A stretch of 64,000 bases of DNA from Eledone cirrhosa (taxonomy: Eukaryota). How positions within the stretch are numbered: position 1 is the first letter of the stretch; the number at the start of each line of letters is the position of its first letter. Shown piece by piece: positions 11,207 to 64,000 of this stretch. The position numbers were made by a program, and so were the translations under genes. Location of the stretch: positions 30,318,001-30,382,000 of the forward strand of contig OZ024749.1 of NCBI GenBank assembly GCA_964016885.1, read 5' to 3'. The notes under the pieces are model-generated. The model had not been told where the DNA came from, did no database searches, and saw nothing but the letters and a program-made list of their open reading frames with translations.

Positions 11207-13579
11207 TTATATGCATTTAAAAAAAGAAAAAGTCGTTTTCAAACGATGGTTACAGTATAGTGAACGTTCAATTTTGCTGTTCAAAAGTTTGTTTACCGAC
11301 GTTAAAATGCAGTATATCTCCAAATTGCATAACTTGCAGAATCGATGATTTTGCTTATATGCAGGCGCAGATGCAATAATTTGCCAATCAAGGGAGAATG
11401 CTTGATTGTTCCTCCGGAGCTGCCAGGCTTTATCGGCGAGGGTTGTTACGGAGCGCATTTTCTCGTGCCTGATCGAAGATCGATGTTGGTATAGGCGAGC
11501 TTTGAAAGAAGTTGCGGTACATCCGACGTAATATCATTTGTTGGTTCCGGAATTTATTGTACATCGGTAGACAATATTGCGTGCTAGGCAGTGGTTATTC
11601 TGTGGGCACGTACCTGGTTTGGTGCAGTTACACTTATTTTTATGTTTTGTAGTAGAATCCTGGATAGTTTGGTGGGGTTGTAGTTGCGTGTTAGTGCGTT
11701 GTGTGTTGCTATGCTGGTGCGCTGAGTCATTAGGGATGTACTTATTTAGTATTGCTGAGTTGAGTTTTTTAATTAGTTGTTCTATGTTAGGTGCAGTGGA
11801 GTATGAGAGTCTAATGGTGCGCGTGTTAAAGATTTTATAGTATTTATGTGAAGTTGTAAAGTGTTTATTGATTAGTGTATAGAATTGTGAGATAATCTTA
11901 GTGCTAATAGAAGTATTGTACACGGGGTTATACCGTATGTACTCTCTACGTCTGACTCTATTTGCTGGTTTGCACCTATTAGTATGCCTATTGATGTGTG
12001 TGTGTGGTGCAATACTAGTTCGATTTAGATGTGTTTTATTCATAGTACTTATGTGGTTATCGTCTAGATATTCTATTTTCTCGCAGTAACCAGCTTTTCT
12101 AAGTGCGTTATTATAATATTCAGCATGCTCGTTGAAGGTTTGCAAATTAGACGACAGTCGGGAGATCCTTATGTATATATTTTTAGGGTTGGATTTAATA
12201 ATGGAATGGGGATGGTTCGATTTTACATTAACGTACTTGAGATTTTCATTAAGTTTGTGAAATGGCTCTATATTACCGTTATTAAGGTTGAAGGTGACAT
12301 CCAAGAAGTTGACCACCTTAAGATTGTGTTCGAAGGTAATATTAAGCCCTAGTTCTAAGAAAAGTTTCCTAATGTTTTTACGTCGCCTTTCTAGGTTGTG
12401 TTTGTTCATATTCTTGACTAATAGAAGTGTATCGTCGCGGTATATTCCGCCGTGGAGATCCGTAAATTCGCTCTGGAGTCTGTGGGCTGTATAGATCCCA
12501 ACCAGATCCGTGACCTCCGCCGAATCATTAGAACCCATCGTAATGTCGAATTCCGAGGGTCTATCTCTGCGGACCCAATAACTATTTTCAAAGTGCACTA
12601 CTGTGCGTCTAGCTTCAAGTATAATATTAATTTCCTCGTTTGTGAGGTCCGAGTTATTCTTAGCGAAAGAGAGGGCCTTATGCAGGGTTTCGGGTGAAAT
12701 AGAGGAATAGTATTCATGTATATCGAATTGAATAAAAGAAGATTTGTTTTTGTCCCTAATGTTATTGAACCATCTTATTGCCTGATGAGTATTACCCCAT
12801 AATTTAATATCTACCTTAGCCTTAACTTGGGGGATAATACGATCTAATATGTACTTACTGATTCTACCTATATCGGACTTTGAAGGACATATTAATCTAA
12901 TTTTAGGGTTAGTATCGAAGTTATCCTTATGGTCCTTCAGATTAAAAGTCGGTGTAGCTGGAGATAGGGGTACCGTTCTGTCGTCAATTTTCAGTTTCTT
13001 AACAATATCACATGCTGCGTTATTAATGTTGGTTAGTGTAGTTGCGTTTGTTTTTTTGTACTTCCTATGTAATTCCTTACGTATAAAATTATTATATGTT
13101 TCTACATCCAGGGTGTATAGATTCGATGTTTTGTTTGCCTTTATGATAATTCCTTTGGTATTCCTTAGGATGTCGAGTAGAGTTTTAATATCTCGTTGCA
13201 GTTCGTTTTTCCTTCCGTTTGCAAATTTGATTCTGGTTATCATTTTCATTAAGTCCTGTTCGAAAGAATCCAAAAGAGGGTTAGAGGGTGGGTTTTTGTA
13301 GGATTTGAAACCAAACTTATCGTTGTTGGTGTCGGAAGTTTGTGTAATCCTTTTCCTATCGAAGTGGAAGGCCCTCCATCTAATCCGCCGAATAAATTCG
13401 TTGGTCCTTTGTATCATACCAAGAATGTATTCTTTTTTACCCTGAATGGGTATGTTTTTTAAGGACATACCACAATGATGTTTTTCCATTTCAGAGACGT
13501 AGGTTGATAGGTTGCTCGACTGTAAAGGAGTGTGAAGAATTAGTAAATTTGTATTCCAATGTATACTAAGTAGTTGCAT
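11207..13579 (-). pseudogene. PLE reverse transcriptase + C-terminal GIY-YIG endonuclease with one in-frame TGA at 11534-11536
   Basis: RT motifs FIQFDIHEYYSSI, FDITMGSNDSAEVTDLVG, IYRDD, VNFLDVTFNL, YVNVKSNHP; Cys linker CNC..CPQNNHCL. GIY-YIG reads NIVYRC...NK*YYVGCTATSFKARLYQHRSS and continues in frame into ORF 11207-11458 (CKLCNLE, LLNSKIE, CNHR). Confidence 0.92.
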
Positions 13580-13717
13580 TGGATGGAGTCAACCGACGTC
13601 AGAGATTGCTCAACGTATAATAAAGTGTGTTTTAAAATCCGGAGAATTTATATATATATAAAGAGAGAGAGAATGGAAAACGAAAAATCAGTGATGCATC
13701 GGAACTCATTTTATTGT

Positions 13718-21421: not shown

Positions 21422-23308
21422 TGTGATATGCCATATATGTCCTGGGTATTTAAACCTGGCTATTTGTGATATGCCATATATGTTCTGGGTATTTAAACCT
21501 GGCTATTTGTGATATGCCATATATGTCCTGGGTATTTAAACCTGGCTATTTGTGATATGCCATATATGTCCTGGGTATTTAAACCTGGCTATTTGTGATA
21601 TGCCATATATGTCCTGGGTATTTAAACCTGGCTATTTGTGATATGCCATATATGTCCTGGGTATTTAAACCTGGCTATTTGTGATATGCCATATATGTCC
21701 TGGGTATTTAAACCTGGCTATTTGTGATATGCCATATATGTTCTGGGTATTTAAACCTGGCTATTTGTGATATGCCATATATGTCCTGGGTATTTAAACC
21801 TGGCTATTTGTGATATGCCATATATGTCCTGGGTATTTAAACCTGGCTATTTTTCATATGCCATATATGTCCTGGGTATTTAAACCTGGCTATTTGTGAT
21901 ATGCCATATATGTCCTGGGTATTTAAACCTGGCTATTTGTGATATGCCATATATGTCCTGGGTATTTAAACCTGGTTATTTGTCATATGCCATATATATC
22001 CTGGGTATTTAAACCTGGCTATTTGTGATATGCCATATATGTCCTGGGTATTTAAACCTGGCTATTTGTCATATGCCATATATGTCCTGGGTATTTAAAC
22101 CTGGTTATTTGTCATATGCCATATATGTCCTGGGTATTTAAACCTGGCTATTTGTCATATGCCATATGTGTCCTGGGTATTTAAACCTGGCTATTTGTGA
22201 TATGCCATATATGTCCTGGGTATTTAAACCTGGCTATTTGTCATATGCCATATATGTCCTGGGTATTTAAACCTGGCTATTTGTGATATGCCATATATGT
22301 CCTGGGTATTTAAACCTGGCTATTTGTCATATGCCATATATGTCCTGGGTATTTAAACCTGCCTATTTGTCATATGCCATATATGTCCTGGGTATTTAAA
22401 CCTGGCTATTTGTCATATGCCATATATGTCCTGGGTATTTAAACCTGGCTATTTGTCATATGCCATATATGTCCTGGGTATTTAAACCTGGCTATTTGTG
22501 ATATGCCATATATGTCCTGGGTATTTAAACCTGGTTATTTGTCATATGCCATATATGTCCTGGGTATTTAAACCTGGCTATTTGTGATATGCCATATATG
22601 TCCTGGGTATTTAAACCTGGCTATTTGTGATATGCCATATATGTCCTGGGTATTTAAACCTGGCTATTTGTGATATGCCATATATGTCCTGGGTATTTAA
22701 ACCTGGTTATTTGTCATATGCCATATATGTCCTGGGTATGTAAACCTGGCTATTTGTGATATGCCATATATGTCCTGGGTATTTAAACCTGGCTATTTGT
22801 GATATGCCATATATGTCCTGGGTATTTAAACCTGGTTATTTGTCATATGCCATATATGTCCTGGGTATTTAAACCTGGCTATTTGTGATATGCCATATGT
22901 GTCCTGGATATTTAAACCTGGCTATTTGTGATATGCCATATATGTCCTGGGTATTTAAACCTGGCTATTTGTGATATGCCATATGTGTCCTGGGTATTTA
23001 AACCTGGCTATTTGTCATATGCCATATATGTCCTGGGTATTTAAACCTGGCTATTTGTGATATGCCATATATGTCCTGGGTATTTAAACCTGGCTATTTG
23101 TCATATGCCATATATGTCCTTTGTATTTAAACCTGGCTATTTGTGATATGCCATATATGTCCTGGGTATTTAAACCTGGCTACTTGTCATATGCCATATA
23201 TGTCCTTGGTATTTAAACCTGGCTATTTGTCATATGCCATATATGTCCTGGGTATTTAAACCTGGCTATTTGTGATATGCCATATATGTCCTGGGTATTT
23301 AAACCTGG
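21422..23308. repeat. 43-bp minisatellite, ~44 copies
   Basis: Unit tgtgatatgccatatatgtcctgggtatttaaacctggctatt, very homogeneous. Confidence 0.97.
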
Positions 23309-23983
23309 CGAAGCACAACATATTTTTCAGCCAATTTCTTCAAGAGAAATACAGAAAGAGCAAGAGAGGAAATGCGAATGACATAACGGGAAGGAATCGA
23401 ACCCAGTAGGGGATTGATACTTTATTTACTAACTTCGAAAAGGTGAAAGACAACGTGTGTCTCGATGGCATTACAACTCCGGGAGCCAGAAAGAAACACT
23501 GCCAAACATATTATCTAATACTCTAACCACTAACCAATTTACTGACTCTCAACCTTACTAAGAAATAAAAATAAACATATTACTAATGAGATGGTGTTCA
23601 TTTCTAAGCAACGGTTGAAGCTGTGCTAAATAGTTGGTGATATTTTCTGTTTTAAATTCGAATCTCATACACAATCGCCATTTGTCTTCCGTCCCTTTGG
23701 GAATAATAACATAATAGCTGCATATACGATGTCTAAGGAAAATTGAGCGATAGAATAGAAAACCACGATATGCTAAAGAATTAAATTAACGGTGAACAAA
23801 TATTCTTATCTCAGTGATTAAATTCATTCAAGATAGGCAGAGAAGGCAACTCACAAAATTGAAATGAATTAAAGTTAATTTAGATTAGGAAGTAGGGAAT
23901 AACTCTGAAAGCATGACAACACCTGCAAACATGTTTCGTTATTATTAGACCTCAACAGGTGTTAATGAGAAATCTGAGAATGA

Positions 23984-29833: not shown

Positions 29834-29913
29834 ACACACGTACAAATCCAAAGATATGTTTCACCAAAAATTTGTTGAAAGAAATGGTCTAGTCTCGGTT
29901 CATCAGCGTGTGT
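29834..29913 (-). ncRNA. Type I hammerhead, canonical core
   Basis: acacacg-CTGATGA-acc...ggt-GAAA-catatc tttg gatttg-TA-cgtgtgt; 7-bp stem I and a hairpin stem III. Confidence 0.75.
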
Positions 29914-35312: not shown

Positions 35313-35945
35313 AGACTCAGACTCAGACTCAGAAGCTCCCGCGTCTTGCGACGCACGAGGCAATCATAGTGTTCCACCGCGTTCGGTCAGCAGCCAGTTG
35401 CACAGCGTCCCGCCATTGTCTGTTTGTCGCTCGCAGGTCCCTCTCAACTGTCTGGCGCCAGTTCATTTTGGGTCGCCCTCTCCGTCTGCTTCCCTGTGGG
35501 TTCCATTTAAGTACTTGGTTCGCCAGTCTCTCCGGGGGAAGTCTCAAAGCGTGCCCAAACCAGCCCAGGCGTCGCTTGCAGATGGCAGAAGAGACTAGCT
35601 GCTGGTTGGTGCGGTTACTGACTTCCTGGTTTGTTATATGGTCACTCCATTTAATCCCCAGGATCTTTCGCATACACCTGGAATCGAATGCGTCCAACTT
35701 CTTCTCTTGGCTGGTCTTAAGGTGCCATGTTTCACTTCCGTACAAGAGTATGGAGAGCACGTTGCTGTTGTAGAATCTCATCTTTGTTTTGAGGGTGAAC
35801 TTCCTGCTCTTCCAGATCTTGACAAGCTGGTTAAATGCTGCTGAAGCATTTCCCATTCTACATTGCAATTCACTGTCCATGGCGCCCCCCATTGTCAATG
35901 GAGCTTCTTAGGTAGGTGAAGTTGTCCACTATCTCCACCTCCCCC
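35313..35945 (-). mobile_element. RTE-clade LINE 3' fragment (RT C-terminus)
   Basis: EIVDNFTYL.., then ORF 35329-35898 with LLYGSETW, RRLGWFGHALR, GSRRRGRPKMNW. Ends in a (CTGAGT)n tail typical of RTE. Confidence 0.9.
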
Positions 35946-37829: not shown

Positions 37830-38499
37830 TCAGGTTATAAATTGGGTGTTGAGTTCTAGTCTATTATTGATTGGTGGTTGTGTTTTATCTATAATTAGTG
37901 CTTCCTTAATTCTAATATTGCCGAGGTTTCTTTCCTTAGTTTCTATCCTAACTGTTATGGTTTTGTCGGTGTTTTTGCATTTAACTAGGTGTTTCTTAAA
38001 TGAGGAAGCGTTAGTATTGAGGTGTACTTTTATGGAGTGGTCTGGTGGTGCTACCTACGTAGAAGTTGTTGCATTTGTCACACTCTAGTCTGTATACGAC
38101 GTAAGCCTGGTGGCATGGGTCTGTGTCGTTGATGGGGCAGTTGGCTAGTCTGCAGCAGTTGTTATGTCTGGTGGAGTGTCTTTTGGTTAGCTGTCCGCGT
38201 AGAGAAGGACCTGAGTGGGCCAGTTGGATATCTAGTCCCTCTCGTCTGATGGCTCTGTGGATGGCTGTTGTTGTTTCTTCACTGAAGTGTGGGAGCTTCA
38301 GGAAGCAAGTGTTAGTGCCTCGGGTGTGGTGTCCTCTGTTCTTTCTGGCACGGTTTGTGGTGGATGTCGTGTATCCGTTCAGTTTGAGTACTTCCAGGAA
38401 ATGTGTGGTGTGTGTGTCTCGGTCTCTAACGTCGGTGCATTTGTTCCGGATACGTGCCAGTTTGTTCCTTATGTATCCGAACTTGGCACCGAGCGGCAC
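37830..38499 (-). pseudogene. PLE C-terminal region/GIY-YIG endonuclease, frameshift near 38030
   Basis: FLKLPHFSE...CRLANCPI...VVYRLECDKCNNFYVGSTTRPLH, then in a shifted frame IKVHLN..SSFKKHL..IRIKEALIIDKTQPPINNRLEL*. Confidence 0.85.
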
Positions 38500-41740: not shown

Positions 41741-41799
41741 TTTTATTATACATATTTCAAAGGTAAAATGGCGTTTAAGTACGTTTTCATCAGACAAAA
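41741..41799 (-). ncRNA. Hammerhead (TATATA stem III family)
   Basis: ttttgt-CTGATGA-aaacgta...taccttt-GAAA-TATGTA-TA-ataaaa. Paralogs at 49081 (-) and 29396-29455 (+, A9 mutated). Confidence 0.55.
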
Positions 41800-48941: not shown

Positions 48942-49080
48942 AAGGTTAAACAACGTTCAATAAATAAATCAAAGAATGAGTTTTACAATAGATTGGAAGC
49001 ACTCAACACTTTTCGTTTTCCTGAGTTATTAATATTAATTCAAAATATTAACAAAATAGATATTCTTGTGATCAAATATA

Positions 49081-49143
49081 TTTTATTATATATATTTCAG
49101 AGGTACTGAGTTAACTTCAACAGTACATCCTCATCAGATAAAA
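49081..49143 (-). ncRNA. Hammerhead (TATATA stem III family)
   Basis: ttttat-CTGATGA-ggat gtactg..cagtac ctct-GAAA-TATATA-TA-ataaaa. Confidence 0.68.
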
Positions 49144-49289
49144 TAAGATGATGCATGACATACACTGACATCTACCATGTCAGGGTACGTCATGCATTAT
49201 CGTACTTTTGAAGTTAACTCAGTACCTCTGAAATATGTATAATAAAATATACTTGATCACAAGAATATCTATTTTGTTAATATTTTGAA

Positions 49290-49343
<54 letters not shown>

Positions 49344-49883: not shown

Positions 49884-49927
<44 letters not shown>

Positions 49928-50138
49928 TATATTTTGAGAATAAACTCTCAGTCGTTTACAATAATTAAGCTCGAGGAAGGGGCTCTTCCGAGCAGTCAAT
50001 AGTGTACGATAAACACGAAATGTGTTTACATTGCAACAGACAAAGTTAGCTATTAATGAAATAAACTAATAAAAGTGAATACAATTTGTCTGTCTCGATA
50101 TAAGTCAATAAAGACAATATTATATTGGCAACTGCCAT

Positions 50139-50315
50139 GATTCCTGGACATATTTAAATTTCAAAATTCAAACCTGTTCTGTAGACGAATTTGAACCTCG
50201 AAACCCAAATAAGTTTCGCAACAGTGGAATGTGAATTGAAAAATAAAGAGAATCGAAATGGAATAGAAATAAAAGAGTGAGGTATCCAAATCTTCTGTGC
50301 TTATCAACAGGAATC
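50139..50315 (-). ncRNA. Giant hammerhead, U3-A8 core (TTGATAA)
   Basis: Inverted copy of 51148-51324; differs at core position 7 (T versus G). Confidence 0.75.
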
Positions 50316-51147
50316 CAGTAAGATTAGTCTATATCACATCAAAAATTTTGCAGGACTGACTACACGTGGGTAGGCAGGCCAAAACTAGCTATCCCACATT
50401 CACGGTGCTAGAAATAACAGCCGCTTATGCAGGATTAAGGATCAGCTCTTACAATAAAGGAGCAATACATTATATTATATTTTGAGAATAAACTCTCAGT
50501 CGTTTACAATAATTAAGCTCGAGGAAGGGGCTCTTCCGAGCAGTCAATAGTGTACGATAAACACGAAATGTGTTTACATTGCAACAGACAAAGTTAGCTA
50601 TTAATGAAATAAACTAATAAAAGTGAATACAATTTGTCTGTCTCGATATAAGTCAATAAAGACAATATTATATTGGCAACTGCCATGATTCCTGGACATA
50701 TTTAAATTTCAAAATTCAAACCTGTTCTGTAGACGAATTTGAACCTCGAAACCCAAATAAGTTTCGCAACGGTGGAATGTGAATTGAAAAATAAAGAGAA
50801 TCTTTATTGACTTATATCGAGACAGACAAATTGTATTCACTTTTATTAGTTTATTTCATTAATAGCTAACTTTGTCTGTTGCAATGTAAACACATTTCGT
50901 GTTTATCGTACACTATTGACTGCTCGGAAGAGCCCCTTCCTCGAGCTTAATTATTGTAAACGACTGAGAGTTTATTCTCAAAATATAATATAATGTATTG
51001 CTCCTTTATTGTAAGAGCTGATCCTTAATCCTGCATAAGCGGCTGTTATTTCTAGCACCGTGAATGTGGGATAGCTAGTTTTGGCCTGCCTACCCACGTG
51101 TAGTCAGTCTTGCAAAATTTTTGATGTGATATAGACTAATCTTACTG

Positions 51148-51324
51148 GATTCCTGTTGAGAAGCACAGAAGATTTGGATACCTCACTCTTTTATTTCTAT
51201 TCCATTTCGATTCTCTTTATTTTTCAATTCACATTCCACCGTTGCGAAACTTATTTGGGTTTCGAGGTTCAAATTCGTCTACAGAACAGGTTTGAATTTT
51301 GAAATTTAAATATGTCCAGGAATC
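51148..51324 (+). ncRNA. Giant hammerhead, U3-A8 core (TTGAGAA)
   Basis: gattcctg-TTGAGAA-gca..~80 nt..tgc-GAAA-c-[24-bp stem III with 8 G.U pairs]-GTC-caggaatc. Confidence 0.78.
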
Positions 51325-51605
51325 ATGGCAGTTGCCAATATAATATTGTCTTTATTGACTTATATCGAGACAGACAAATTGTATTCACTTTTATTAGTTT
51401 ATTTCATTAATAGCTAACTTTGTCTGTTGCAATGTAAACACATTTCGTGTTTATCGTACACTATATATATATATATATATATATATGTGTAAAAGTTCTA
51501 TTTAAATTGTTGGGATACAACAAGCAAATATTTTTATAACTGATATAAAGCACTCAACAAATAATTGGAGTAAAAATACGATATTAGTAGTTTCCAATTG
51601 TTAAT

Positions 51606-57260: not shown

Positions 57261-57392
57261 GGAGCTGCCAGACAGCCACTTTGGAAACTGATTAAACTGC
57301 TCACCTGGTAATTACTTCGAATTCCATCATCAATGGAGGAAACAATATTGAAATTAGAAATAGACCAGATTAGAAAATATACTGGAGCAGAT

Positions 57393-60300
57393 GTACATAT
57401 AGAGACAGGCATATATATATAGAGAGAGACAGGCATATATATACACATAGAGACAGGCATATATATACACATAGAGACAGGCATATATATACATATAGAG
57501 ACAGGCATATATATACATATAGAGACAGGCATATATATAGAGAGAGAGACAGGCATATATATACACATAGAGACAGGCATATATATAGAGAGAGAGACAG
57601 GCATATATATACACATAGAGACAGGCATATATATACATATAGAGACAGGCATATATATACATATAGAGACAGGCATATATATAGAGAGAGAGACAGGCAT
57701 ATATATACACATAGAGACAGGCATATATATAGAGAGAGAGACAGGCATATATATACACATAGAGACAGGCATATATATATACATAGAGACAGGCATATAT
57801 ATACATATAGAGTCAAGCATATATAAACATATAGAGACAGGCATATATATACATATAGAGACAGGCATATATATACACATAGAGACAGGCATATATATAC
57901 ATATAGAGACAGGCATATATATACAGATAGAGACAGGCATATATATACATATAGAGACAGGCATATATATACATATAGAGACAGGCATATATATACACAT
58001 AGAGACAGGCATATATATACACATAGAGACAGGCATATATATACACATAGAGACAGGCATATATATACATATAGAGGCAGGCATTTATATACATATAGAG
58101 ACAGGCATATATATAGAGAGAGAGACAGGCATATATATACACATAGAGACAGGCATATATATACACATAGAGACAGGCATATATATACATATAGAGACAG
58201 GCATATATATACATATAGAGACAGGCATATATATAGAGAGAGAGACAGGCATATATATACACATAGAGACAGGCATATATATAGAGAGAGAGACAGGCAT
58301 ATATATACACATAGAGACAGGCATATATATACATATAGAGACAGGCATATATATACATATAGAGACAGGCATATATATAGAGAGAGAGACAGGCATATAT
58401 ATACACATAGAGACAGGCATATATATAGAGAGAGAGACAGGCATATATATACACATAGAGACAGGCATATATATATACATAGAGACAGGCATATATATAC
58501 ATATAGAGTCAAGCATATATAAACATATAGAGACAGGCATATATATACATATAGAGACAGGCATATATATACACATAGAGACAGGCATATATATACATAT
58601 AGAGACAGGCATATATATACAGATAGAGACAGGCATATATATACATATAGAGACAGGCATATATATACATATAGAGACAGGCATATATATACACATAGAG
58701 ACAGGCATATATATACACATAGAGACAGGCATATATATACACATAGAGACAGGCATATATATACATATAGAGGCAGGCATTTATATACATATAGAGACAG
58801 GCATATATATACATATAGAGTCAGGCATATATATACATATAGAGACAGGCATATATATACATATAGAGACAGGCATATATATACATATAGAGACAGGCAT
58901 ATATATACACATAGAGACAGGCATATATATACACATAGAGACAGGCATATATATACATATAGAGACAGGCATATATATACACATAGAGACAGGCATATAT
59001 ATACATATAGAGACAGGCATATATATACATATAGAGTGAGGCATACATATACACATAGAGACAGGCATATATATACACATAGAGACAGGCATATATATAC
59101 ACATAGAGACAGGCATATATATACACATAGAGACAGGCATATATATACACATAGAGACAGGCATATATATACATATAGAGACAGGCATATATATACACAT
59201 AGAGACAGGCATATATATACATATAGAGACAGGCATATATATACATATAGAGTGAGGCATACATATACACATAGAGACAGGCATATATATACATATAGAG
59301 ACAGGCATATATATACACATAGAGACAGGCATATATATACACATAGAGACAGGCATATATATACACATAGAGACAGGCATATATATACATATAGAGGCAG
59401 GCATTTATATACATATAGAGACAGGCATATATATAGAGAGAGAGACAGGCATATATATACACATAGAGACAGGCATATATATACACATAGAGACAGGCAT
59501 ATATATACATATAGAGACAGGCATATATATACATATAGAGACAGGCATATATATAGAGAGAGAGACAGGCATATATATACACATAGAGACAGGCATATAT
59601 ATAGAGAGAGAGACAGGCATATATATACACATAGAGACAGGCATATATATACATATAGAGACAGGCATATATATACATATAGAGACAGGCATATATATAG
59701 AGAGAGAGACAGGCATATATATACACATAGAGACAGGCATATATATAGAGAGAGAGACAGGCATATATATACACATAGAGACAGGCATATATATATACAT
59801 AGAGACAGGCATATATATACATATAGAGTCAAGCATATATAAACATATAGAGACAGGCATATATATACATATAGAGTGAGGCATACATATACACATAGAG
59901 ACAGGCATATATATACACATAGAGACAGGCATATATTTACACATAGAGACAGGCATATATATACATATAGAGACAGGCATTTATATACATATAGAGACAG
60001 GTATATATATACATATAGAGTCAGGCATATATATACACATAGAGACAGGCATATATATACACATAGAGACAGGCATATATATAGAGAGAGAGACAGGCAT
60101 ATATATACACATAGAGACAGGCATATATATATACATAGAGACAGGCATATATATACATATAGAGTCAAGCATATATAAACATATAGAGACAGGCATATAT
60201 ATACATATAGAGACAGGCATATATATACACATAGAGACAGGCATATATATACATATAGAGACAGGCATATATATACAGATAGAGACAGGCATATATATAC

Positions 60301-63300
60301 ATATAGAGACAGGCATATATATACATATAGAGACAGGCATATATATACACATAGAGACAGGCATATATATACACATAGAGACAGGCATATATATACACAT
60401 AGAGACAGGCATATATATACATATAGAGGCAGGCATTTATATACATATAGAGACAGGCATATATATACATATAGAGTCAGGCATATATATACATATAGAG
60501 ACAGGCATATATATACATATAGAGACAGGCATATATATACATATAGAGACAGGCATATATATACACATAGAGACAGGCATATATATACACATAGAGACAG
60601 GCATATATATACATATAGAGACAGGCATATATATACACATAGAGACAGGCATATATATACATATAGAGTGAGGCATACATATACACATAGAGACAGGCAT
60701 ATATATACACATAGAGACAGGCATATATTTACACATAGAGACAGGTATATATATACATATAGAGTCAGGCATATATATACACATAGAGACAGGCATATAT
60801 ATACACATAGAGACAGGCATATATATACATATAGAGACAGGCATATATATACACATAGAGACAGGCATATATATACATATAGAGACAGGCATATATATAC
60901 ATATAGAGTGAGGCATACATATACACATAGAGACAGGCATATATATACACATAGAGACAGGCATATATTTACACATAGAGACAGGTATATATATACATAT
61001 AGAGTCAGGCATATATATACATATAGAGACAGGCATATATATACACATAGAGACAGGCATATATATACACATAGAGACAGGCATATATATACACATAGAG
61101 ACAGGCATATATATACATATAGAGGCAGGCATTTATATACATATAGAGACAGGCATATATATAGAGAGAGAGACAGGCATATATATACACATAGAGACAG
61201 GCATATATATACACATAGAGACAGGCATATATATACATATAGAGACAGGCATATATATACATATAGAGACAGGCATATATATAGAGAGAGAGACAGGCAT
61301 ATATATACACATAGAGACAGGCATATATATAGAGAGAGAGACAGGCATATATATACACATAGAGACAGGCATATATATACATATAGAGACAGGCATATAT
61401 ATACATATAGAGACAGGCATATATATAGAGAGAGAGACAGGCATATATATACACATAGAGACAGGCATATATATAGAGAGAGAGACAGGCATATATATAC
61501 ACATAGAGACAGGCATATATATATACATAGAGACAGGCATATATATACATATAGAGTCAAGCATATATAAACATATAGAGACAGGCATATATATACATAT
61601 AGAGACAGGCATATATATACACATAGAGACAGGCATATATATACATATAGAGACAGGCATATATATACAGATAGAGACAGGCATATATATACATATAGAG
61701 ACAGGCATATATATACATATAGAGACAGGCATATATATACACATAGAGACAGGCATATATATACACATAGAGACAGGCATATATATACACATAGAGACAG
61801 GCATATATATACATATAGAGTCAGGCATATATATACATATAGAGACAGGCATATATATACATATAGAGACAGGCATATATATACATATAGAGACAGGCAT
61901 ATATATACACATAGAGACAGGCATATATATACACATAGAGACAGGCATATATATACATATAGAGACAGGCATATATATACACATAGAGACAGGCATATAT
62001 ATACATATAGAGACAGGCATATATATACATATAGAGTGAGGCATACATATACACATAGAGACAGGCATATATATACACATAGAGACAGGCATATATTTAC
62101 ACATAGAGACAGGTATATATATACATATAGAGTCAGGCATATATTTACACATAGAGACAGGCATATATATACATATAGAGACAGGCATTTATATACATAT
62201 AGAGACAGGTATATATATACATATAGAGTCAGGCATATATATACACATAGAGACAGGCATATATATACACATAGAGACAGGCATATATATAGAGAGAGAG
62301 ACAGGCATATATATACACATAGAGACAGGCATATATATATACATAGAGACAGGCATATATATACATATAGAGTCAAGCATATATAAACATATAGAGACAG
62401 GCATATATATACATATAGAGACAGGCATATATATACACATAGAGACAGGCATATATATACATATAGAGACAGGCATATATATACAGATAGAGACAGGCAT
62501 ATATATACATATAGAGACAGGCATATATATACATATAGAGACAGGCATATATATACACATAGAGACAGGCATATATATACACATAGAGACAGGCATATAT
62601 ATACACATAGAGACAGGCATATATATACATATAGAGGCAGGCATTTATATACATATAGAGACAGGCATATATATACATATAGAGTCAGGCATATATATAC
62701 ATATAGAGACAGGCATATATATACATATAGAGACAGGCATATATATACATATAGAGACAGGCATATATATACACATAGAGACAGGCATATATATACACAT
62801 AGAGACAGGCATATATATACATATAGAGACAGGCATATATATACACATAGAGACAGGCATATATATACATATAGAGACAGGCATATATATACATATAGAG
62901 TGAGGCATACATATACACATAGAGACAGGCATATATATACACATAGAGACAGGCATATATTTACACATAGAGACAGGTATATATATACATATAGAGTCAG
63001 GCATATATATACACATAGAGACAGGCATATATATACACATAGAGACAGGCATATATATACATATAGAGACAGGCATATATATACACATAGAGACAGGCAT
63101 ATATATACACATAGAGACAGGCATATATATACATATAGAGGCAGGCATTTATATACATATAGAGACAGGTATATATATACATATAGAGTCAGGCATATAT
63201 ATACACATAGAGACAGGCATATATTTACACATAGAGACAGGCATATATATACACATAGAGACAGGCATATATATATACACATAGAGACAGGCATATATAT

Positions 63301-63832
63301 ACATATAGAGTCAGGCATATATATACATATAGAGACAGGCATATATATACATATAGAGACAGGCATTTATATACATATAGAGACAGGTATATATATACAT
63401 ATAGAGTCAGGCATTTATATACATATAGAGACAGGCATATATATACATATAGAGACAGGCATATATATACATATAGAGACAGGCATATATATACACATAG
63501 AGACAGGCATATATATACATATAGAGACAGGCATATATATACACATAGAGACAGGCATATATATACATATAGAGACAGGCATATATATACATATAGAGTC
63601 AGGCATTTATATACACATAGAGACAGGCATATATATACATATAGAGTCAGGCATTTATATACACATAGAGACATGCATATATATACATATAGAGACAGGC
63701 ATATATATACATATAGAGACAGGCATATATATACATATAGAGTCAGGCATTTATATACATATAGAGTCAGGCATATATATACACATAGAGACAGGCATAT
63801 ATATATACACATAGAGACAGGCATGTATATAC
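57393..63832. repeat. 24-bp minisatellite (~6.4 kb) with higher-order variant blocks
   Basis: Unit atagagacaggcatatatatac(ac/at), with recurring variants (gagtcaagc, gaggcaggcattt, gagtgaggcatac). Confidence 0.97.
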
Positions 63833-64000
63833 ATACACACACAGACACACACATACAGATATAGAGGTAAGTATTCACATACATACATGTATATACATAC
63901 ACACGCATACAGGCAGACATATACATACACACGCACAGACACACACACAGACATATATAGAGGTAAGTATACACTCACATACACACAGACACAGTATACA

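Follow-up and report, generated by a model that had tools for sequence, protein, structure and literature searches.

A high-copy hammerhead repeat between TA microsatellites of Eledone cirrhosa, likely a non-autonomous Penelope-like element

An insertion with a hammerhead fold was identified in the window (the whole 64-kb stretch of Eledone cirrhosa DNA that was analysed), which is probably a young copy of a high-copy, protein-free repeat with the fold conserved on one strand. The repeat is likely a non-LTR retrozyme of the non-autonomous Penelope-like kind, with a Penelope reverse transcriptase-endonuclease, supplied in trans, that would copy its RNA into TA microsatellites. By its testable features the element belongs to the non-LTR retrozymes, that is, the non-autonomous Penelope-like elements, a class already known: the tandem unit is non-coding and carries one type I hammerhead, and the insertions are tandem or inverted, with a tail, fixed 3' ends and microsatellite targets. 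Its distinctive features are the architecture of the ribozyme and the preserved series of intermediates. The retrozyme-like family with a monomer of about 548 nt, which an earlier note on this DNA had suggested, was supported.

The insertion was composed of 1.6 tandem and 1.2 inverted copies of the 548-nt unit between TA repeats (Table 1), confirming the tandem and inverted arrangement described before. The interval given then, 49921..51463, was broadly right in position and wrong in its start, since the element begins at 49917. The direct repeat (49917-50254 versus 50465-50802) had a spacing of 548 with 2 differences, and the inverted arms (49999-50662 versus 50801-51464) had 3 differences. 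Two ribozyme copies had been counted, an inventory that was incomplete because a third, 5'-truncated half lies on the minus strand at the inversion. The unit had a GC content of 35% and a longest ATG ORF of 32 aa, and the reverse transcriptase/GIY-YIG endonuclease ORF of an autonomous element was not present in it.

Table 1. Features of the insertion, in positions of the window
Feature	Position	Strand	Description
Whole insertion	49917..51464	.	two arms of 548-nt units back to back, RNA 3' ends outward into (TA)n
Left (TA)n target	49886..49920	.	
Right (TA)n target	51462..51486	.	
Site-B arm	49917..50802	-	886 nt, 1.6 units; includes the 82-nt tail 49917-49998
Site-A arm	50801..51464	+	664 nt, 1.2 units
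Third ribozyme half, 5'-truncated	50687..50802	-	loop II end, helix III, GUC and stem I 3' strand; stops at the inversion junction
Second complete ribozyme fold with pseudoknot strand	50139..50325	-	core 50301-07, T at N7; predicted cut between 50147 and 50146
Predicted pseudoknot, 5' strand	51138..51147	+	pairs with 51166-51174
Type I hammerhead fold	51148..51324	+	span 177 nt, U3-A8 core; predicted cut after 51316
Stem I	51148-55/51317-24	+	GATTCCTG / CAGGAATC
Core	51156-62	+	TTGAGAA
Stem II	51163-65/51243-45	+	3 bp, GCA/TGC
Loop II	51166..51242	+	77 nt; begins with the pseudoknot strand (51166-74), followed by pyrimidine-rich sequence predicted to compete for the core
GAAA	51246-49	+	
Helix III	51249..51315	+	diverged tandem copies (51250-77 and 51287-314) of a self-complementary 28-mer, mutually paired
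GUC (GTC in DNA)	51314-16	+	

The unit was abundant in the 3.0-Gb genome, where exact-motif searches returned 662 matches to the core (reversed control 1) and 1,128 to the start of helix III (reversed control 0). It was also covered at high depth by contigs from public sequencing runs (385 and 337 in two independent runs of one study, 7 in a third, smaller run), which are of unrecorded type, do not span the whole insertion in any case and show presence only. No RNA data set was among the runs listed as containing the unit, which speaks neither for nor against its expression. Given these hundreds of public contigs and the pattern matches over their controls, the unit is neither single-copy nor an assembly artefact, two possibilities that the earlier note had raised. 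A sample of 121 distinct motifs from 83 insertions (loci L001-L103) was used for comparison; it was picked by BLAST rank or by pattern, mostly from contig C1, and is not random. A further set of 57 motif rows from 30 loci, without de-duplication, represented the subfamily with the shortest helix. The best 30 BLAST loci were 97-100% identical and yielded no covariation. Two pairs of loci (L036/L037 and L111/L112) resembled inverted segmental duplicates of single insertions, 0.9 Mb and 13 kb apart, and should each be counted once. A 2.5-kb spacing at L061 that resembled a full element was a local duplication without an ORF. No description of this repeat family was found in the literature, and it may already be catalogued in Repbase/Dfam-type libraries or in supplements.

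The fold is a three-way junction of helices I-III, open at helix I as in type I hammerheads, with a stem II of 2 bp in some subfamilies. The 177-nt span, the 8-bp stem I, the 24-bp helix with G·U as its only departure and the GUC were all present as reported earlier. The 24-bp helix (51252-75/51289-312) contained 8 G·U pairs and no other mismatch, and a U·U mismatch sits between it and two core-proximal pairs. The stem II region was 83 nt long, yet the helix itself was only 3 bp; an extended stem II was ruled out, since pairing beyond the third pair was inconsistent among the 83 insertions. The second whole hammerhead, on the minus strand, occupied 50139-50315 without its pseudoknot strand. 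The reported difference at N7 between the two copies (G versus T) was found as well, G being the rare state (1 of 83 insertions, with T in 71). The sense strand folded with a z of -2.73 (0/200 shuffles as good) and the antisense strand with a z of +0.11, so the hammerhead fold is not a chance structure. With a type I descriptor demanding at least 6 Watson-Crick pairs in stem I, 5 matches were obtained in the 64-kb window, two of them the whole copies of this insertion. No hammerhead model of Rfam matched the window or the compact older form, either at the gathering threshold or at E up to 5.

Two of the labels given to this ribozyme stood only in part. Its size deserves the word giant for the window copy, but not as a family trait, as it is recent, subfamily-specific and derived from a duplication and a loop insertion. 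The U3-A8 core is present but is not a novelty, being a published natural variant (PMC3088659) also known from Penelope hammerheads (PMC4209133). The core, UUGANAA, is a compensated variant of CUGANGA with covariation at 3-8, and older subfamilies deviate from it at U4.

The earlier model also lacked a predicted pseudoknot between loop II and the 5' flank. In all subfamilies the bases after stem II (51166-74) were complementary to those before stem I (51138-47). At most 2% of other windows paired equally well in 51 of the 83 insertions, and at most 5% in 64. The three central pairs were invariant and therefore gave no covariation, so the evidence for this site is conservation, not covariation. 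According to PMC3088659, pseudoknots can support a stem II of 2-3 bp, and the change from C3-G8 to U3-A8 occurs as natural covariation. The test RNA that had been proposed, 51140-51330, would clip the pseudoknot, because its 5' strand starts at 51138. Nested folding gave stem II a probability of 0.0 and paired the core with loop II, so that a competing structure is predicted to sequester the core. Without the contribution of the pseudoknot (duplex -5.6), the hammerhead fold was 10.6 kcal/mol less stable than the MFE; across subfamilies this gap was 6.5-14.7 kcal/mol, about the size of pseudoknot stacking.

Covariation was observed both in the core and in the stems. The 3-8 core pair covaried across the 83 sampled insertions, and genome-wide it was C-G in 410 cases, U·G in 88 and C·A in 4, with U-A in at least 662, the last count coming from a different search pattern than the other three. 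Compensatory changes were shown by two stem I pairs over the same insertions: pair 5 (U-A 51, A-U 30, other 2) and pair 7 (A-U 72, G-C 6, G·U 2, other 3). In helix III, 24 pairs in 71 long-helix insertions gave 1,079 Watson-Crick cells, 583 G·U, 3 A·C and 39 others, and among pair types common to at least two insertions there were 17 of G·U and 1 of A·C. For 31 hand-picked representatives, 96.2% of the helix III cells paired, compared with 14-52% in slid registers, and 0/500 shuffles reached as high a value in a control that ignores relatedness. The conservation of the stems in other copies, suggested earlier as a check, was thus found in the compensated stem I and in the excess of G·U over A·C. 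Selection on RNA structure of one strand, formerly argued from the wobbles of a single copy, is borne out, and the covariation among subfamilies is much better evidence for it.

The eight positions G5, A6, G12, A13, A14, A15.1, U16.1 and C17 had no shared change in the 83 insertions. Shared changes occurred in 64 of 143 downstream columns (45%), as against 0/8 of these catalytic-core positions (rough p 0.009), where the invariance is inflated for G5/A6 and GAAA, which some search patterns demanded; no genome search pattern included U16.1 or C17.

The G·U-rich helix could in principle be a by-product, either of A-to-I editing of a perfect hairpin fixed by retrotransposition or of a DNA palindrome drifting neutrally. 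Of the 12 differences that separate the window copy from L090, the most symmetric copy, 4 were A to G, as editing would give; another 3 were T to C and 2 were G to A, which is beyond what editing makes, and with 5/12 of this kind editing alone fails for the wobbles. A neutral palindrome is expected to show A·C as often as G·U, contrary to the counts above, and the covariation in stem I and the core is explained by neither process. As a full explanation this by-product reading is largely refuted and highly improbable, while editing may have had a share in some wobbles.

The family displayed a graded series of forms. A tree made from the downstream sequence outside the ribozyme (81 rows) was a ladder, obtained by a quick method, with many weak forks and unrooted; its direction was taken from the decay of identity between duplicated arms. 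At the start of the ladder there were CAGANGA cores with a helix III region of 15-36 nt and a stem II region of 31-36 nt. The order of cores was CAGANGA, CCGANGA and TTGATGA, then TTGATAA, and the stem II region lengthened along it from about 42 to 82-83 nt. Loop II expanded from about 31 nt to 83 nt, its pyrimidine-rich part being about 40-50 nt shorter in older subfamilies; a source for the insert was sought by 9-mer matching within the unit, and none was found. In the shortest forms helix III was a run of a self-complementary 7-mer of 15, 22, 29 or 36 nt, always a hairpin, and the 65-nt form was a 37-nt tandem duplication of the self-complementary hairpin. The 28-nt arms were identical at 26/28 and 25/28 positions in L090 and L081, where a second GCGAAA is still legible in the spacer. 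The arms of the window copy were identical at 17/28 and still fully paired with each other, and the 9-nt spacer is a remnant of that second GCGAAA. Minimal Penelope hammerheads use a dimer fold (PMC4209133; PMC6765202), of which the long helix III appears to be an intramolecular version. From these sequences, older and younger copies seem to record the rewiring of the core and the lengthening of the arms step by step.

The pattern of insertion pointed to a Penelope-type process. The outer ends of insertions were the 3' ends of the ribozyme strand and fell at two fixed sites, A and B, 82 nt apart. Scoring was possible for 44 of the 83 insertions, after setting aside 37 with too much divergence from the query and 2 that were incompletely covered. 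Two arms were found in 25 of the 44, and 23 of these 25 combined A with B, with A+A and B+B both at 0; the remaining 2 (L036 and L037, apparently one duplicated locus) combined B with another site. The 19 one-armed insertions ended at A (10) or B (8) or were a stray fragment (1). Each insertion would then represent two priming events, one per site. PMC8557442 gives as marks of Penelope-like elements partial tandems with an inverted 5'-truncated copy, a tail on one side and a bias to (TA)n; PMC11167929 describes for the anole element the cutting of both strands, a predicted dimer, and two internal start sites of reverse transcription by which the tail is defined.

Intact ORFs of 778-784 aa, presumably of Penelope type judging from their motifs and layout, were present in the genome; Pfam did not recognise the Penelope ORFs. 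At two loci (L160 and L163) the unit was directly preceded, at its 5' end and on the same strand, by a fused Penelope ORF fragment; the rest of the ORF did not follow downstream, and the L163 junction had a 3-nt overlap. These fusions involved two different Penelope families, and we infer from the two cases that they arose by template switches of the reverse transcriptase. Two further fragments were rejected as chance neighbours, one (L161) separated from the unit by other sequence and a TA tract, the other (L162) lying downstream on the opposite strand. Sequence kinship of the unit with non-coding ends or pseudo-LTRs was not found in the three Penelope families examined out of many (48,297 candidates), namely that of the Penelope ORF in the window and two others.

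That ORF (11534-13588, minus strand) was near-complete, with 684 aa to a stop and an endonuclease part continuing behind it; its family has intact copies of 778-784 aa, some in tandem, and a family 75% identical to it has many equal-scoring copies, suggesting recent activity. A second Penelope-type ORF fragment with an endonuclease-like C terminus was observed at 38011-38499 (minus strand). In the non-coding ends of two autonomous families (L136:3300-4400 and L156:1700-2700), pieces of a hammerhead core were read by eye, CTGANGA and GAAAC-palindrome-UH with a closing 8-bp helix, not in the normal type I order; they are possibly a rearranged hammerhead.

Other features were seen in the window too. 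A separate small inverted repeat at 49062-49290, beside the insertion, carried on its minus strand a compact type I hammerhead motif with a CTGATGA core at 49137 and an 8-bp stem I. Minus-strand hammerhead motifs also occurred at 41793, similar to the one at 49137, and at 29906, of another type. The end fragment of a LINE ORF (35329-35907, minus strand), taken here to be RTE-like, matched DUF6451. A 43-bp satellite with 44 copies and 96% matches occupied 21422-23309, and a long satellite with a period of about 24 bp, giving long spurious ORFs, extended over about 57370-64000.

Indirect hints on whether the ribozyme cuts came from the ends of the arms and from the cores. Of the 66 arm 5' ends, 18 fell within the 0-70 nt on the 3' side of the predicted cut, while the following 70 nt contained 3 and the preceding 70 nt 7; clusters of 5' ends at sites A and B were given no weight, as they may be BLAST edge effects. 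The excess was spread over 70 nt rather than placed at the site, and could equally come from stalling of the reverse transcriptase at helices. At least one predicted cut was crossed by 57 of the 66 arms and two by 13 (42 loci), a read-through count that is inflated, as the loci were selected for a whole ribozyme. Non-canonical cores occurred in subfamilies that spread: U4 was changed to A or C in 20 of 83 insertions and A9 to U in 7, a 10.1-11.1 mismatch was found in 13, and U4 was present in only one of the first 100 C3-G8 matches listed. Functional hammerheads with U4C and with A9U are known from nature (PMC3088659; PMC10085705), and in a preprint 8 of 9 frog retrozyme dimers tested did not cleave (10.64898/2026.07.22.740005). 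On balance, real, probably slow, cleavage by the present subfamily would be somewhat likely.

A fold of hammerhead descent might also be kept for its structure, which would bind the Penelope protein or cause it to pause, with negligible cutting. This would agree with the tolerance of core changes at 4, 9 and 10.1 in spreading subfamilies, with the read-through of the cut site by most arms, with the predicted sequestering of the core and with the insertion of the anole element in vitro, which according to PMC11167929 had no need of cleavage. It is at odds with the eight catalytic-core positions free of shared change, and the occurrence of U4C and A9U in functional hammerheads weakens the argument from core changes. 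The 3-8 pair, moreover, switched through a wobble and avoids C·A, and this pair matters solely for the active hammerhead fold. Conservation for structure with negligible cutting is accordingly regarded as unlikely.

Efficient self-cleavage, with 548-nt monomers ligated into abundant circles and rolling reverse transcription into tandem arms, is another possible source of the insertions, judged rather unlikely. Arms longer than one unit and reading through the site would suit it. The monomer was also predicted to be stable as a circle, at -130.8 kcal/mol on this strand versus -108.0 on the other, with 63% of it paired and a z of -5.0 on 25 shuffles. Circles are documented for coral, mussel and axolotl retrozymes in PMC7229834, and PMC7761336 likewise records them for animal retrozymes. 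An excess of 5' ends just short of the cut is, however, unexpected for a closed circle unless reverse transcription stalls, most arms were below 1.5 units, and linear read-through of tandem copies accounts for the same data. The inverted arm needs Penelope-type priming at two sites, so a circle alone leaves the inversion unexplained. The earlier note had proposed a concatemer from reverse-transcribed circular or multimeric RNA; a multimer is compatible with the data, and a circle is not required as template, because an uncut read-through transcript fits the tandem arms equally well. The circle explanation and the preferred one differ in the template only and partly overlap.

For the non-autonomous Penelope-like element preferred here, the following steps could be proposed. 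A tandem copy would be transcribed through, and a Penelope protein, probably a dimer, would cut both strands within (TA)n. Reverse transcription would start at the internal sites A and B, 82 nt apart, giving two arms joined by their 5' ends. Monomeric folding of the ribozyme would be made possible by the duplicated hairpin, which supplies intramolecularly the long helix III available to minimal Penelope hammerheads only as dimers, and the pseudoknot between loop II and the 5' flank would prop up the 3-bp stem II. As modelled, a slow and incomplete cut after the GUC would leave a mixture of cut and uncut multimers as templates, for which circles are possible and not required. A wider joint reading can be offered only tentatively, as possible though doubtful: one family of retro-parasites would keep the complete series of an active ribozyme, in which a pseudoknotted hammerhead, long spreading with A at U4, went from the Penelope dimer fold to a self-contained monomer by duplication of the helix III hairpin, its core pair passing from C-G through U·G to U-A, and a loop insert then came as an off-switch of the core. 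The insertion ends 3' of the site would in that case be a genomic record of cutting in vivo.

Like the metazoan non-LTR retrozymes described by Cervera and de la Pena 2020 (PMC7229834), in a review (PMC7761336) and by Li, Clavereau and Pollet 2026 (10.64898/2026.07.22.740005), the repeat has a non-coding, low-GC tandem unit with one type I hammerhead per unit; its 548 nt lies within the published 51-972 bp, and Penelope-like elements co-occur. Those ribozymes are described as having a weak, short helix III and contacts between loops 1 and 2, whereas here helix III comprises 27 pairs, the stem II region measures 83 nt, a pseudoknot is predicted, the core is non-canonical, and the copies are dispersed short arms including inversions. 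Partial tandems, an inverted 5'-truncated copy, a tail, the (TA)n bias and two fixed start sites are shared with Penelope-like elements (PMC8557442; PMC11167929). From Penelope pseudo-LTR hammerheads, PMC4209133 describes a U3-A8 core in Schistosoma Cercyon and a large helix III in fungal and protist elements, both as here, and those of animals are described as minimal and dimer-dependent, unlike the present one. The repeat further differs from Penelope-like elements in having no ORF, in a tail of 82 nt against their 30-40, and in that a homologous autonomous pseudo-LTR was not found in the three families examined. With the hammerheads of Perreault et al. 2011 (PMC3088659), pseudoknotted and with a stem II of 2-3 bp, it shares a predicted base-paired contact of stems I and II and the change from C3-G8 to U3-A8. 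That set is described as mostly bacterial, phage or single-copy, while here the whole series lies in one repeat family, in which the U·G intermediate is represented, as is a U4A lineage with several hundred copies.

The role of the hammerhead in Penelope-like elements is in question: cleavage was dispensable in vitro and most tested motifs are weak. The present family offers natural variants in a known order, with helix III short or long, the core pair in three states and loop II short or long, and it shows which core changes are tolerated by a mobile RNA while it spreads. Large animal hammerheads with non-canonical cores escape the Rfam models, and CUGANGA descriptors would miss such cores. 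In addition, the rule that A is combined with B provides a genomic test of the model of priming from two start sites.
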